Assembly: GCA_026397015.1 (NCBI GenBank)
Contig: JAPLVR010000003.1
Span: 224,001-288,000, forward strand
Origin: Candidatus Iainarchaeum sp.
Lineage (GTDB): Archaea > Iainarchaeota > Iainarchaeia > Iainarchaeales > JAAZKV01
DNA length: 64,000 nt
Reading direction: 5' to 3'
The notes beneath the pieces are model-generated. The model was given only the letters and a program-made list of their open reading frames with translations, did not search any database and was not told the origin of the DNA. The position numbers and the translations under genes were made by a program. Every line of letters starts with the position of its first letter. Positions within the stretch are counted from its first letter, which is position 1. This document shows, piece after piece, positions 3,324 through 61,094 of this stretch.

Positions 3324-4196
3324 CTAAAATGCCGTTTCAAAGCTTAATCCTTTGGTATATCTATTCAAGCCAACCATTTTTTCTGGAATTTTTTCCCTGT
3401 CGGCGAATTTCTTGTAATCTAAAACTTTTTTCTTCCGAAGGAAGAGCGGAAGCTTTGAGGCGACGCCGTTGCCGCCGATGCAGCCGCCTTTGCAGAACAA
3501 AATGTCATAAAAAATTTTGTCGGAATGCGTTTCAAATAGTTTTAGCAAATCTGCGCAACCATCGCGGGAAACAGTCTCCCCCTCTTTCAAAATATCTTTT
3601 GAATGCAGTGTTTTACCGAGTCCCCCGGAGAGCGGGTAAATTTTAGTGTAATCGTTGTAGAAGCGGTCGAACAGATGCGAGCGACCGGACTTTTTTGGCT
3701 TTTCTTTTTCAATAATTCCTTTCATTTCCCTAAAAGTAAGCGCTGCTGAAATCAACCTGCCATTTTTTGCTTCAATTTTTTTCGCGGAGCAGGGGGCAAG
3801 AAAAACGATTTTGTGCTTCGGATATTCCTTATGAAGTATCTTTGCCATTGAAATCACTGGAGAATCAAAAGGCAAAAGGAATTTTTTTAATTCAGGGTGA
3901 CGGTTTTTCACCATTTCAACGGAAGTAGGGCAGACAGAGGAAATGAATTTCTCGTAGCCTTTCTTTCCTTTATTTTCTTTTATGTATTTGTGATAGTGTT
4001 CATTTACTATTTTTGCGCCGAAAGTGAGCTCGGTTATCCTGTCGAAGCCGAGCCCTTTCATCAAGGGAACAAAAGAAAGATAATCGAAGTCGACAACAAA
4101 AGAGGGCGCCGCCATCAAGCAAACTTTTTGCTTTTCATTCAAAAGCGACAGAACTTTTTTCTGGTCAGTGGAATAACTAAAATTTAGATCGACCAT
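3324..4196 (-). CDS. Minimal [FeFe]-hydrogenase-like protein (H-domain only, 290 aa)
   Basis: L1-like ISSVCP, L2-like APCSAKKIE and L3-like DILFCKGGCIGGNG motifs; N-terminal AAPSF and ELTFGA segments typical of the H-domain; no ferredoxin domain. Confidence 0.85.
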   Translation of the reverse strand: MVDLNFSYSTDQKKVLSLLNEKQKVCLMAAPSFVVDFDYLSFVPLMKGLGFDRITELTFGAKIVNEHYHKYIKENKGKKGYEKFISSVCPTSVEMVKNRHPELKKFLLPFDSPVISMAKILHKEYPKHKIVFLAPCSAKKIEAKNGRLISAALTFREMKGIIEKEKPKKSGRSHLFDRFYNDYTKIYPLSGGLGKTLHSKDILKEGETVSRDGCADLLKLFETHSDKIFYDILFCKGGCIGGNGVASKLPLFLRKKKVLDYKKFADREKIPEKMVGLNRYTKGLSFETAF

Positions 4197-15357: not shown

Positions 15358-16860
<1,503 letters not shown>

Positions 16861-16890
16861 TTTTCACCAGCCTTTTTCGCAAAAAGGCTG
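16861..16890 (+). repeat. REP-like palindromic repeat copy
   Basis: TTTTCACCAGCCTTTTTCGCAAAAAGGCTG; 10-bp perfect stem immediately after the rpoA2 stop. Confidence 0.85.
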
Positions 16891-21678: not shown

Positions 21679-21825
21679 TTGCGAAGCGTGACAAAACAGT
21701 TGTTTTGCCACGGTCTTTTTTTCGAAAAAAGGGCACTCCTGCGAAGCAGACAGTTTTTCGCCAGCCTTTTTCGTAAAAAGGCTGATGTGAAGCATTTTTT
21801 CGCCGGCCTTTTGCTAAAAGGCCGG
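21679..21825 (+). repeat. Composite cluster of REP-like palindromes (BIME-like)
   Basis: GCGAAGC mini-hairpins (21681, 21741); hairpins GTGACAAAAC/GTTTTGCCAC and GTCTTTTTT/AAAAAAGGGC; TTTTTCGCCAGCCTTTTTCGTAAAAAGGCTG (21754-21784); TTTTTTCGCCGGCCTTTTGCTAAAAGGCCGG (21795-21825). Confidence 0.85.
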
Positions 21826-23206: not shown

Positions 23207-23293
23207 TCCCGTAGGGATTTTCGCAGGCCTTTGAAAAAGCTGGCAAAAGTTTTTCGCGAAAGTTTTTCGCCAGCCTTTTTCGCAAAAAGGCTG
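23205..23293 (+). repeat. REP-like palindrome cluster
   Basis: AATCCC/GGGATT hairpin, a degenerate copy at 23218-23249, and TTTTTCGCCAGCCTTTTTCGCAAAAAGGCTG at 23263-23293. Confidence 0.85.
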
Positions 23294-23703: not shown

Positions 23704-24126
23704 ATGTTCGAGCTGTTTGAGCACAAGGCGGATATCGGTGTGCGCGGAATCGGCGAAACGAAAGAAGGGGCTTTTGCCGAATGCGCAAAAGCGCTTTTTG
23801 AAATAATGTGCGACACGAAAAAAGTAATTCCCTCGCAAAAAACCGAAATAATTGTTTCTTCAAACAAATTGGACGAACTACTTGTAGAATTTCTTAACGA
23901 ATTGCTGTATTTGAAAGACACCGAAAGAATGCTTTTCTCAAAATTCGAAATAAAAATAAAAAAAGTCGGAAAAAAATTCGGGCTGGAGGGAATCGCGTTC
24001 GGGGAAAAAATTGACGCAAAAAGGCACGAATTGAAAACGGAGGCGAAGGCGGCGAGCTACTCGCAACTGCTTGTTGAAAAAAACAAAAATGGAAAATGGA
24101 CGGCGCAGTGCATTGTTGATGTTTAA
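23704..24126 (+). CDS. Archease
   Basis: FEHKADIG, EAKAASY, C-terminal IVDV; directly upstream of rtcB. Confidence 0.93.
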   Translation: MFELFEHKADIGVRGIGETKEGAFAECAKALFEIMCDTKKVIPSQKTEIIVSSNKLDELLVEFLNELLYLKDTERMLFSKFEIKIKKVGKKFGLEGIAFGEKIDAKRHELKTEAKAASYSQLLVEKNKNGKWTAQCIVDV

Positions 24127-24151: not shown

Positions 24152-25603
24152 ATGGGTGAAATAAAAAAAATCAGCGAATTCATTTACGAAGTTCCGAAGG
24201 AGGGAAATATGCGTGTTCCTGGCAGAATTTACGGAAATGAAAACACCATCGCCGCGCTCAACGATGAATTCCAAAAAAACCCGAACTGGAATTCATTACA
24301 GCAAATGGAAAACGGTGCGGGGTTACCCGGAATTCAAAAATATTTATTTGCCTTGGCCGATGTGCACTGTGGGTACGGACTGCCGATTGGTTCGGTTTTT
24401 GCAGCAGATCCAAATGAGGGGGTAATCACCTTTGGCGGTATCGGTTTTGACATCAACTGCGGCGTGCATTCGCTGATTGTTCCTCTTAAAGCAAGCGAGG
24501 TGGAGAAAAAAAAGAAAGAAATCGCGGAGCAACTGTTCAGGGATGTTCCTGCGGGGCTCGGGAGCAAGGGAAACTTGGAATTGGGGAGCGGGGAGTTGGA
24601 TGAAGTGATGGAGAAGGGCGCCGAGTTTGTGGTGGAAAGAGGGTGCGGGAGAAGGGAGGAATTAAAATTCATTGAAGAAAACGGGTGCGTGAATGGCGCG
24701 GATCCGAAAAATGTTTCGGAGAAGGCGAAGCAAAGGGCGCTGAGGCAAATCGGAACGCTGGGCTCGGGAAACCATTACTGCGAAATCCAGGAAATTGAAA
24801 AAATATTTGATGAAGAGGCGGCAGAAGCGTTTGGGCTTGAAAAGGAAGGAGTTTTAGTTAGCATCCACTGCGGCTCGCGCGCTCTCGGACACCAAATCGG
24901 AACTGATTACCTTTCAATTTTGGCAGAGGCTTCGAGGAAATACAAAATAAATATTCCCGACAGGGAGCTGGTTTGCGCGCCGATTGAAAGCGAAGAAGGG
25001 CAGGATTTTTTTTCGGCTGTAAAATGCGGAATGAACGCCGCGTTTGCGAACAGGCAGGCGATTGCTTCGCTGGTTCGCAGAAGCTTTGCAAAAGTTTTCG
25101 GAATTTCTGAGGCGGAAGTAAAAACTCTCTATGATGTGGGGCACAATACCGCGAAAATGGAGAGGCACAAGGTGAATGGGAAAATGAAGGAGCTGTTAGT
25201 GCAAAGGAAGGGGTCGACGAGAGGATTCGGGCCGGATAGGGGAGAAGTTCCTTCGAAGTATAGGAAAGTCGGGCAGCCGGTTATTGTGGGCGGAACGATG
25301 GGAACGCATTCATTTATTTTGAAAGGAACGGAAAAAGCGATGGAGGAAACTTTCGGAAGCACGATTCATGGCGCGGGGAGGGCAATGTCAAGGACGCGGG
25401 CTTTAAAAATGTGGACTGGGTCGCAGATGGTTCAGGAGCTGGAAAAAAAAGGAATCCTGATAAAGGCAAAATCGCTGAAGGGGCTGCCGGAGGAGGCGCC
25501 GCTCGCGTATAAGGACGTGGAAGAGGTTGTGAACATAATGCACAAGGCGGGAATTTCAACAAAGGTTGCGATGGTTAAGCCGATGGTTTGCGTGAAGGGG
25601 TAG
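24152..25603 (+). CDS. rtcB: RNA-splicing ligase RtcB
   Basis: DVHCGYGLPIG, GFDINCG, GSGNHY, HCGSR, HN, HGAGR, EEAP.AYK. Start may be 24131 or 24152. Confidence 0.96.
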   Translation: MGEIKKISEFIYEVPKEGNMRVPGRIYGNENTIAALNDEFQKNPNWNSLQQMENGAGLPGIQKYLFALADVHCGYGLPIGSVFAADPNEGVITFGGIGFDINCGVHSLIVPLKASEVEKKKKEIAEQLFRDVPAGLGSKGNLELGSGELDEVMEKGAEFVVERGCGRREELKFIEENGCVNGADPKNVSEKAKQRALRQIGTLGSGNHYCEIQEIEKIFDEEAAEAFGLEKEGVLVSIHCGSRALGHQIGTDYLSILAEASRKYKINIPDRELVCAPIESEEGQDFFSAVKCGMNAAFANRQAIASLVRRSFAKVFGISEAEVKTLYDVGHNTAKMERHKVNGKMKELLVQRKGSTRGFGPDRGEVPSKYRKVGQPVIVGGTMGTHSFILKGTEKAMEETFGSTIHGAGRAMSRTRALKMWTGSQMVQELEKKGILIKAKSLKGLPEEAPLAYKDVEEVVNIMHKAGISTKVAMVKPMVCVKG

Positions 25604-51613: not shown

Positions 51614-51829
51614 GCAGGGGTTCCCGAGCGGTCAAAGGGGCAGGACTTAAGCAGCCTTTTTAAAAAAAAGGCTGGCGAAAAAAAGCTAGCGCGGCAGCCT
51701 TTTAAAAAAAAGGTCGTGATGAATTAAACTCATCACGCTTCGCAAAAGCTTTGCTTTTGCTTAATGGAGAAAAGGTTTGAGTAATCCTGTGGCTTAGTGC
51801 CTTCAAGAGTTCGAATCTCTTCCCCTGCA
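51614..51829 (+). tRNA. tRNA-Leu(UAA) with a 132-nt intron at position 37/38 (intron 51652-51783)
   Basis: Acceptor GCAGGGG/CCCCTGC + A; D-arm; anticodon arm CAGGA-CT-TAA-G|A-TCCTG; long variable arm; AAGAG-TTCGAAT-CTCTT T-arm. Canonical BHB: CTTA/TGAG central helix, AG|C and TA|A bulges, outer helix AGCCTTTT/AAAAGGTT. Usual position after rpoD. Confidence 0.95.
51652..51745 (-). repeat. Inverted composite REP-like element inside the tRNA-Leu intron
   Basis: Reverse complement reads TTGCGAAGCGTGA...TCACGACCTTTTTTTTAAAAGG...TTTTTTTCGCCAGCCTTTTTTTTAAAAAGGCTG, collinear with 21679-21784. Confidence 0.8.
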
Positions 51830-60977: not shown

Positions 60978-61008
60978 AAATAGTTCGAAAGAATTTGGGT
61001 TTGTTTTC

Positions 61009-61094
61009 GCGCTTCAGCGCTTGAAAACGGAAGCCAGGAGGCTTCATCCGTCGCCTAAGGCGACGGTTTTCGCCGGCCTTTTGTCAAAAGGCCG
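61009..61094 (+). repeat. Hairpin array ending in a REP-like copy, directly before the aIF2gamma SD
   Basis: GCGCT/AGCGC, GAAGCC/GGCTTC and CCGTCGCC/GGCGACGG hairpins, then TTTTCGCCGGCCTTTTGTCAAAAGGCCG (61067-61094). Confidence 0.8.

Follow-up and report, generated by a model that had tools for sequence, protein, structure and literature searches.

How protein-spliced introns arrive in archaeal tRNA genes is described as still open in the accessible part of a 2026 preprint on Asgard archaea (bioRxiv 10.64898/2026.10.13.758758). This study examined that question at a tRNA-Leu(UAA) gene of Candidatus Iainarchaeum sp., which lies in a 64,000-nucleotide stretch of contig JAPLVR010000003.1 (positions 224,001 to 288,000; the whole stretch is hereafter called the window). 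A reading of the window from its letters alone (hereafter, the sequence-only reading) had claimed that the intron of this gene is mostly an inverted copy of a dispersed intergenic repeat, and that either a repeat had colonised or created the intron or an excised intron had seeded the intergenic copies. We found that nucleotides 1-122 of the unusually long, 132-nt intron constitute one copy of a modular hairpin repeat, other copies of which lie in operon spacers and, with a fixed polarity, at the boundaries of tRNA genes. We consider it probable that a copy of this family, which resembles the repetitive extragenic palindromic (REP) elements of bacteria, filled an old hairpin-type intron, and that splicing renders the insert harmless.

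ARAGORN, run with introns allowed, identified a single tRNA gene with a 132-nt intron at window positions 51614-51829 (contig C5 275614-275829) and labelled it Ile(tat), because the program set the intron 2 nt too far 5'. The variable arm is long, as in class II tRNAs, and this arm together with the cut rule of the bulge-helix-bulge (BHB) motif (loop CUUAAG^A, where ^ marks the cut) gives a leucine tRNA with the anticodon UAA and an intron at 51652-51783, as the sequence-only reading had proposed. ARAGORN at default settings and Rfam at gathering scores both failed to detect the gene in the window. The BHB is canonical, with a CAGGA/TCCTG stem, a 4-bp CTTA/TGAG helix, two bulges of 3 nt each (AG^C and TA^A), and an outer helix formed by AGCCTTTT and AAAAGGTT. 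Direct pairing revealed that the strand AGCCTTTT is also the 5' arm of H1, the first hairpin of the repeat; the earlier claim that one end of the element coincides with intron nucleotide 1 and lends an arm to the outer helix was thus upheld. Folding of the precursor under the BHB constraint yielded -50.4 kcal/mol versus a minimum free energy of -52.9 kcal/mol for the unconstrained fold, a gap of 2.5 kcal/mol; the cloverleaf arms are retained in the unconstrained fold, and the outer-helix strand is contested by local folding of H1.

The genome contains one match to the EndA domain (PF01974), located in a 195-aa frame on contig C2, and the window carries the genes of RtcB (24302-25600) and archease (23707-24123), both of which had been recognised earlier. 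The gene itself is flanked by the S11 and RpoD genes on one side and by the L18e and L13 genes on the other, and no T run follows it. Judged from its sequence, it reads as an ordinary tRNA-Leu(UAA) gene interrupted at position 37/38 by an intron of the protein-spliced (EndA/RtcB) type. A C/D box guide RNA is encoded in the archaeal tRNA-Trp intron, and such an RNA requires a C box (RUGAUGA) and a D box (CUGA). The leucine intron contains GTGATGA at 51716-51722, yet CTGA occurs nowhere in it, and the hairpin that bears GTGATGA, H3, has a different sequence in the other copies of the module. Among the contigs of four lake metatranscriptome runs, none spanned the repeat part of the intron. Two of the runs yielded contigs with the joint 51652>51784; the one compared in detail probably comes from an intronless relative, because it has four differences in exon 2 and because of its flanking sequence.

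The repeat module is approximately 125-140 nt long and follows the order H1, GGCGAAAA, H2, H3, GCTTCGC, H4, and GGCGAAAA. Its detailed reading is H1 (CAGCCTTTTT-loop-AAAAAGGCTG), GCGAAAAAAA, H2, H3, GCTTCGC, and H4 (GCAAAAGC..GCTTTTGC), followed by TTARTGGCGAAAA. H3 has the arms GTGATGA..TCATCAC in the leucine intron versus GTGGCAAAAC..GTTTTGTCAC elsewhere, and a profile alignment revealed that the intron form departs from the one common to five other long copies. The best match to the intron was the 3' trailer of tRNA-Ile(GAU) on contig C2, which begins directly after the tRNA and is collinear with intron nucleotides 1-122 in direct polarity. The local score of this pair was 57.5 versus 12.0 +/- 2.1 for dinucleotide shuffles, and BLAST aligned the two with 76% identity over 127 columns (E = 3e-17); the trailer copy extends beyond the point equivalent to the intron end. 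The match on which the sequence-only reading was based, between the reverse-complemented intron and 21679-21784 in the spacer between the EF-2 and EF-1alpha genes (hereafter, the EF spacer), scored 34.5 versus 11.0 +/- 1.9, with a maximum of 20 among 1000 dinucleotide shuffles, which do not preserve hairpins. BLAST aligned these sequences with 68% identity over 106 columns (E = 2e-7). The collinearity, the positions of all the listed motifs, the identity of the genes flanking the spacer, and the excess of the alignment over its shuffles were therefore as claimed; the description as an inverted copy applies to this spacer, but not to the best match.

To what extent the module is shared was determined from its smallest unit, which consists of TTTTCGCC and an H1-type hairpin and appears from the other strand as a CAGCCTTTTT..AAAAAGGCTG hairpin followed by GCGAAAA. 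A pattern search identified 43 strict units in the 898,628-bp genome, which is 85% complete. An nhmmer profile built from six long copies, which match it by construction, yielded 46 matches at E < 0.01, and seven of these were long copies: the tRNA-Ile(GAU) trailer, the tRNA-Leu(UAA) intron, the EF spacer, the tRNA-Ser(CGA) leader, the tRNA-Pro(UGG) leader, the tRNA-Lys(UUU) trailer, and the spacer between tRNA-Lys(UUU) and tRNA-Lys(CUU). All seven keep their four different hairpins and three linkers in one arrangement. The stems are preserved through compensatory changes; stem pair 2, for example, is A-T in 30 cases, G-C in 14, and non-Watson-Crick in 6. Rfam gave no family for the unit, either in the window at gathering scores or in nine loci of other genomes, and a clostridial locus searched at E <= 1 gave weak matches only, far under the cut-offs. 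A viral origin was considered and dropped, as exact matches of the unit in viral contigs numbered zero.

The units are tied to the boundaries of tRNA genes. Nearly half of them (21 of 43) lie at most 4 nt from such a boundary, namely at nine 5' ends, eight 3' ends, and four 5' splice sites; 3' splice sites have no adjacent unit. When units were placed at random in non-coding DNA, the mean number of tRNA-adjacent units was 0.15 and the maximum 2 in 2000 trials. In 21 of 21 tRNA-adjacent units the hairpin is on the tRNA side, with the TTTTCGCC/GGCGAAAA flank directed away; therefore, the leader modules are the mirror image of the trailer and intron modules, and the copy in the leucine intron has the polarity of a 3' trailer. 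Downstream of nine tRNA 3' ends, the first T run comes from the 5' arm of the hairpin; these ends thereby carry a predicted oligo-T terminator (at least five T on the sense strand at the gene end), and thirteen other tRNA genes have a plain T run within 12 nt. The remaining 22 units occupy spacers after or between genes in both orientations. An Rfam search of fifteen stretches around them at E <= 0.1 returned only 16S rRNA and RNase P RNA and no RNA gene that abuts these units. Random insertion does not account for the polarity and the abutment, which may stem either from a mechanism or from selection for a role at the RNA level or in termination. Other hairpins, unrelated in sequence, likewise border tRNA 5' ends, at tRNA-Leu(UAA) in several relatives and at five further tRNAs of this genome.

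Some leaders of this genome have a further common feature. A structured leader occupies approximately 80 nt upstream of tRNA-Cys, Trp, Met (C5), Glu(CUC), Glu(UUC), Ala(UGC), Tyr, Asn, Val, and Ile(UAU, C3), and the same leader precedes tRNA-Leu(UAA) at three loci of other genomes (L008, L013, and L015). It comprises UUGCGAAGC, a covarying stem, a near-invariant loop (GAGC-N3-4-AGCGAA), UUUUCGCC or CAAGUGCC, and a hairpin that ends at the first base of the tRNA. A kink-turn in the conserved loop was rejected by hand inspection, as its register misfits the Watson-Crick stem. A BHB formed between leader and trailer at the ends of tRNA-Ser(CGA) and tRNA-Arg(UCU) was likewise rejected by hand, as no second bulge lies 4 bp away.

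ARAGORN identified 37 tRNA genes in the genome, 12 of them with introns, ten of which are 58-148 nt long. The introns of tRNA-Gly(GCC), tRNA-Gly(UCC), and tRNA-Leu(CAA) open with the same H1 unit as that of tRNA-Leu(UAA). Six tRNA 5' leaders match the Gly(UCC) intron when inverted (E down to 5e-11), and tRNA trailers match the Gly(GCC) intron in direct polarity. The family that had been proposed to unite one intron with operon spacers is thus real and wider than claimed, as it includes tRNA boundaries with a fixed polarity and at least three further introns. The gene of tRNA-Gly(UCC), at C1 177553-177719, was labelled SeC(tca) by ARAGORN because its intron was placed a few bases off. In a second intron family, the introns of tRNA-Thr(CGU), tRNA-Tyr, and tRNA-Glu(UUC) open with CCCTTTTCTTTT..AAAAGAAAAGTG..ATCCCAAAAGAAA, and those of Tyr and Glu(UUC) are 81% identical over 52 nt.

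The tRNA-Leu(CAA) gene is a paralogue whose exons match those of tRNA-Leu(UAA) at 75 of 84 positions and, from the variable arm onwards, are fully identical to them up to the 3' end. The intron of this paralogue is 58 nt long and has the first approximately 28 nt (H1 and GGCGAAAAA) and the last approximately 15 nt (AAAGGGTTTGAGTT) in common with the tRNA-Leu(UAA) intron. Distant tRNA-Leu(UAA) genes on four metagenome contigs have introns of 45, 107, 107, and 123 nt, all of which open with CAGCCTTTT, a start required by the search pattern; two of these introns (L182 and L183) hold GCTGGCGAAAAAA and end in AAGGTTTGAGTT. Because both ends recur in tRNA-Leu(CAA) and in distant tRNA-Leu(UAA) genes, the hairpin-type ends predate this genome. 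The interior of approximately 75-90 nt (H2-H4) is particular to it.

Nineteen genomes of the family to which this one belongs supplied an orthologous tRNA-Leu(UAA) gene, with exon 1 identical or different at one base. The intron is absent in 7 of the 19, and in the other 12 the same site holds an intron of 41-81 nt that is unlike the present one except in G004, where the intron opens with an H1-like hairpin and then GGCAAAAAA. None of the 19 orthologous genes contains the interior of the intron, and conservation of the same long intron in relatives lacking intergenic copies, which would have spoken against a repeat, was not seen. In two sister genera, another hairpin (..CTTCTTTTGC..GCAAAAGACC..; CACTTCTTTTGC..GCAAAAGACCTGCAC) opens the intron in two genomes (G005 and G013; L015 and L019) and sits immediately behind the tRNA-Leu(UAA) 3' end in three (G018, G020, and G022; L003, L010, and L021). 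The pairing of a place after exon 1 with a place after the 3' end therefore recurs with a different sequence. This hairpin is not a high-copy repeat, having one to four copies per genome in five genomes of these genera.

The turnover of introns and units was also visible within the genus. The tRNA-Arg(UCU) gene has a 148-nt intron here (C6 82090-82312) and none in the congener G001 (C12 ~3619-3693), and in each of the two genomes the gene has hairpin units against its 5' and 3' ends. Within a single genus, it provides a clean contrast between presence and absence of an intron, and the comparison with G001 revealed no inversion of the cassette through its palindromes. The spacer between EF-2 and EF-1alpha in G001 contains no units and holds an antisense reading frame. 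The assembly of G001 breaks at the Leu(UAA) locus and at repeat units beside tRNA-Ser(CGA) (C5 start and C3 end), and the repeats probably fragment assemblies of this group.

Beyond the family, the exact unit (25 specified bases) occurred in at least 117 stretches of species-representative genomes. The matches listed include metagenome-assembled genomes (MAGs) labelled Candidatus Iainarchaeum, Pacearchaeota, Woesearchaeota, Micrarchaeota, and Altiarchaeota, with DPANN labels among them, as well as many copies from Clostridia, including the isolate Butyricicoccus pullicaecorum DSM 23266. Among the matches listed, 8 of 124 occurrences in loci of other genomes abut a tRNA boundary, all eight with the same polarity; three of these eight come from two loci, of the three concerned, that look closely related to this genome. 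The clostridial units have no tRNA adjacency. In gut Clostridia MAGs (L023-L138; for example, L053 1513-1539, minus strand) and in B. pullicaecorum DSM 23266, the exact unit TTTTCGCCAGCCTTTT..AAAAGGCTG is multi-copy, and the units sit in arrays of G+C-rich hairpins after genes, in which GCGAAA/TTTCGC words recur.

On the basis of these findings, the filling of an old intron would have proceeded as follows. The ends of the intron, C-AGCCUUUU on the 5' side and AAAAGGUU-UGAG-UA on the 3' side, which together form the BHB, are old. A palindromic hairpin family would spread as DNA within the non-coding portion of a small genome; its copies would either insert or recombine non-reciprocally with one another, the exchange beginning in the common H1-GGCGAAAA unit. 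With fast turnover in non-coding DNA, the family would enter or enlarge an existing intron; possibly a trailer cassette, whose mirror image is the leader, recombined in behind exon 1. The first hairpin arm of the element would then double as the outer-helix strand of the splice motif, and the insert would be tolerated because splicing removes it. Of the two directions left open by the sequence-only reading, we favor that from the repeat into the intron, because the unit has 43 copies here and is present in many other genomes, because the interior is absent in 19 relatives, and because the H3 of the intron is deviant. Colonisation of an existing intron appears likelier than creation of a new one, since both ends recur in tRNA-Leu(CAA) and in distant tRNA-Leu(UAA) genes. 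For the repeat itself, one possible function, suggested by analogy, is bidirectional punctuation by oligo-T and hairpin in the manner of bacterial REP elements. A bolder proposal, which we put forward tentatively and with more doubt than belief, is that the modules are a tRNA-boundary-seeking repeat family and possibly a hitherto undescribed route for the gain, enlargement, and exchange of archaeal tRNA introns.

Several observations weigh against the filling of an old intron by a mobile repeat. The strict polarity and the tRNA abutment could mean selection for an RNA-level role and not mobility. No mobilising enzyme was found in the genome, which had zero matches to the Y1 transposase (PF01797) and to TnpB (PF07282), the two families searched, at its completeness of 85%. 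Neither a target-site duplication, which a miniature inverted-repeat transposable element (MITE) would leave, nor a conserved target sequence was found at the intron borders or the tRNA junctions. Six of the 12 ARAGORN introns had no match elsewhere in the genome at E < 1e-3, and the contig of G001 ends at the Leu(UAA) locus, so that no clean empty/filled pair exists for the interior of this intron. The RNA contigs of the four lake metatranscriptome runs lacked the spliced product of Candidatus Iainarchaeum sp. Finally, the H1 arm beside exon 1 carries T5, a candidate archaeal terminator, and the tRNA lies within a row of ribosomal-protein genes; passive read-through of the intron is therefore an assumption.

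The leading rival explanation is that the modules are functional RNA elements of pre-tRNA maturation, such as a site for the binding or positioning of a processing or chaperone protein or a shield of RNA ends, which selection keeps in the discarded parts of the precursor; the likeness of the copies would then stem from shared constraint and concerted evolution, and not from mobility. The H1 stem is the same on both strands, so that leader, trailer, and intron RNAs would all present the same hairpin beside the cut, and its pairing is kept through compensatory changes. The unrelated hairpins at the 5' ends of tRNA-Leu(UAA) in several relatives and of the five further tRNAs, and the different hairpin that in the sister genera follows either exon 1 or the 3' end of tRNA-Leu(UAA), point in the same direction. 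Beyond H1, however, the leader and trailer modules are reverse complements, and their RNAs would differ. In addition, 22 of the 43 units lie away from tRNAs, the exact unit is multi-copy in Clostridia, where it lacks tRNA adjacency, and unit positions vary between congeners. We regard a maturation role as an unlikely main cause of the family. An origin in the intron was judged distinctly less plausible still. Excised Leu-type introns, circular after RtcB ligation, would have been copied back to DNA and have seeded the other copies, a scheme with which the H1-kind hairpin of a minimal BHB intron and the order of H1 and then GGCGAAAA in Leu introns of distant lineages are consistent. The unit is present, however, in bacteria, which have no BHB splicing; no reverse transcriptase turned up, although no search was aimed at one. 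The H3 of the intron is the odd one out among the long copies, and the limits of the copies differ from the intron borders, as the Ile trailer module runs past the equivalent of the intron end.

It is more improbable again that the apparent intron separates two co-linear half genes, in which case the T5 of H1 would end transcription after exon 1, an A/T-rich stretch inside the module would start the 3' half, and the halves, held together by AGCCUUUU/AAAAGGUU pairing, would be ligated in trans. What follows exon 1 does equal what follows nine complete tRNA 3' ends, where the hairpin gives the first T run, and TTTTAAAAAAAAGG at intron nucleotides 49-62 would pass for a TATA element. Recently split tRNA genes with adjacent halves are described in the accessible part of Chan, Cozen and Lowe 2011 (PMC3218864), and the present gene is like them in that exon 1 is followed by gene-end-like sequence. 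The helper helix would comprise just 8 A/U-rich base pairs, however, and read-through transcription is suggested by the position of the tRNA, which has rpoD on one side, the L18e gene on the other, and no T run behind it; unlike in those genes, a single canonical BHB intron is the simpler reading here. Chance similarity between A/T-rich hairpins has a negligible probability. Low complexity and palindromes inflate local scores, but the scores lie 12 and 22 standard deviations above those of dinucleotide shuffles, and seven copies keep the order of four hairpins and three linkers. Chance is untenable because many independent family members exist.

The finding combines elements of known kinds, namely a BHB intron, REP-like repeats, and intron families. 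Bacterial REP elements and bacterial interspersed mosaic elements (BIMEs) are short, imperfectly palindromic sequences, present in tens of copies and frequently as arrays, that occupy spacers within or after operons and whose stems show compensatory changes. The present repeats are likewise short imperfect palindromes in tens of intergenic copies, frequently as arrays, with operon spacers among their sites and compensatory stems. They differ from REP elements and BIMEs in their archaeal host, in their tight attachment to tRNA ends, in the copy within a spliced intron, and in the lack of a cognate REP-associated tyrosine transposase (RAYT; zero PF01797 matches in the 85% complete genome). An IS200/IS605 origin was considered because hairpin repeats suggest Y1 transposases, and it was dropped, as the genome has no match to the Y1 transposase or TnpB. 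In the accessible part of a paper on circular omega RNAs (PMC12558985), no BHB is reported at those RNAs.

Introns that recur in different tRNA genes of one genome have precedents. The description of such a family in Thermoproteales reportedly goes back to Sugahara 2008 and Fujishima 2010. In the accessible part of the Asgard preprint, the presence of related introns in different tRNA genes of one Thermoproteales genome is termed intron transposition (bioRxiv 10.64898/2026.10.13.758758). The present introns are similar in that related sequences occur across tRNA types of one genome, with the H1 unit shared by Gly(GCC), Gly(UCC), Leu(CAA), and Leu(UAA), and in their removal at a BHB. They differ in that the shared sequence also occurs, with fixed polarity, in tRNA leaders, tRNA trailers, and operon spacers, that all the introns are at the canonical position, and that the shared part is a modular hairpin repeat and not a whole intron. 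IStrons and transposon-derived introns, according to the accessible parts of two papers (PMC4227781; PMC11282704), are mobile DNA that is spliced out of RNA. In these systems, too, mobile or repeated DNA becomes harmless through splicing; however, they rely on self-splicing group I ribozymes or on the spliceosome, and they either code for a transposase or descend from one, whereas here the enzyme would be a host protein endonuclease and no transposase is known. Sugahara 2012 (PMC3293823), in its accessible part, describes the disruption of a Caldiarchaeum tRNA gene through integration of a recombinase-encoding mobile element of 1.8 kb. Intron gain is there likewise ascribed to mobile DNA, and close relatives vary; the modules described here, by contrast, are non-coding and 30-140 nt long. 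A full-text literature search, with supplementary tables outside its scope, found no report of a repeat common to archaeal tRNA introns, tRNA flanks, and operon spacers.

Table 1. Positions of the gene, the parts of the module, and the other copies (window coordinates unless a contig is given; ^ marks the cut).
Feature	Position	Strand	Basis
tRNA-Leu(UAA) exon 1 (positions 1-37)	51614..51651	+	ARAGORN with introns allowed; sequence reading
132-nt intron, canonical 37/38 site	51652..51783	+	ARAGORN with introns allowed; BHB reading; constrained fold
tRNA-Leu(UAA) exon 2, long variable arm included	51784..51829	+	ARAGORN with introns allowed; sequence reading
BHB 5' half: central helix CTTA, bulge AG^C, outer-helix strand AGCCTTTT	51646..51660	+	direct pairing; fold
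BHB 3' half: outer-helix strand AAAAGGTT, central helix TGAG, bulge TA^A	51770..51784	+	direct pairing; fold
Unit H1: hairpin CAGCCTTTTT-AAA-AAAAAGGCTG, then GCGAAAAAAA	51652..51684	+	one of 43 strict units
Hairpin H2 (CAGCCTTTT..AAAAGGTCG)	51695..51716	+	aligned to H2 of other long modules
Hairpin H3 (CGTGATGA..TCATCACG; other copies GTGGCAAAAC..GTTTTGTCAC)	51715..51737	+	alignment, profile, reading
GCTTCGCAA motif and hairpin H4 (GCAAAAGC-TTT-GCTTTTGC)	51737..51760	+	alignment, profile, reading
Inverted long module copy in EF spacer: TTGCGAAGC, H3, H2, then TTTTTCGCC and H1-type hairpin	21679..21784	+	BLAST, alignment, profile
Second unit of EF spacer (TTTTTCGCC and GGCCTTTT..AAAAGGCC)	21796..21824	+	strict pattern
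Unit 8 nt past a gene end	16860..16890	+	strict pattern
Unit 3' of EF-1alpha gene	23263..23293	+	strict pattern
Unit closing second, five-copy composite element, between S6e and next gene	61066..61094	+	strict pattern
Second intron family, tRNA-Thr(CGU)	C2 5062-5227		
Second intron family, tRNA-Tyr	C5 191849-192022		
Second intron family, tRNA-Glu(UUC)	C6 28304-28483		

The unit was also observed in other settings. A second composite element, present in five copies, consists of a GAAGCC-NNNN-GGCTTC hairpin, a variable hairpin, and the TTTTCGCC hairpin unit. It lies at window ~61000-61094, on C3 near 24010, 30219, and 81538, and on C5 near 125501; it was also seen in L136, and it had no Rfam match at E <= 0.1. 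The RNase P RNA (C6 76951-77220) holds a similar hairpin (AAACCTTTTT-CG-AAAAAGGTTT, then GCGAAAA; C6 77066-77087), which may be an insertion in a peripheral helix. At C6 39902-39936 and 41803-41837, one unit precedes the 5' end of the 16S rRNA by approximately 80 nt, and another directly follows tRNA-Ala(UGC) past the 16S rRNA.

In practical terms, tRNA genes of this kind are missed or mislabelled by standard finders, and assemblies break at them. For the question of how protein-spliced tRNA introns arrive, this genome makes the donor pool of an intron visible, as related copies lie in the intron, in trailers, in leaders, and in operon spacers, and close relatives differ in intron presence. 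If the polarity rule reflects a mechanism, it would link the processing sites of tRNA ends with the sites of introns and would offer a concrete system for tests of intron gain. If the modules are indeed a tRNA-boundary-seeking family, the question of how introns arrive would become testable where congeners differ in gain or loss.

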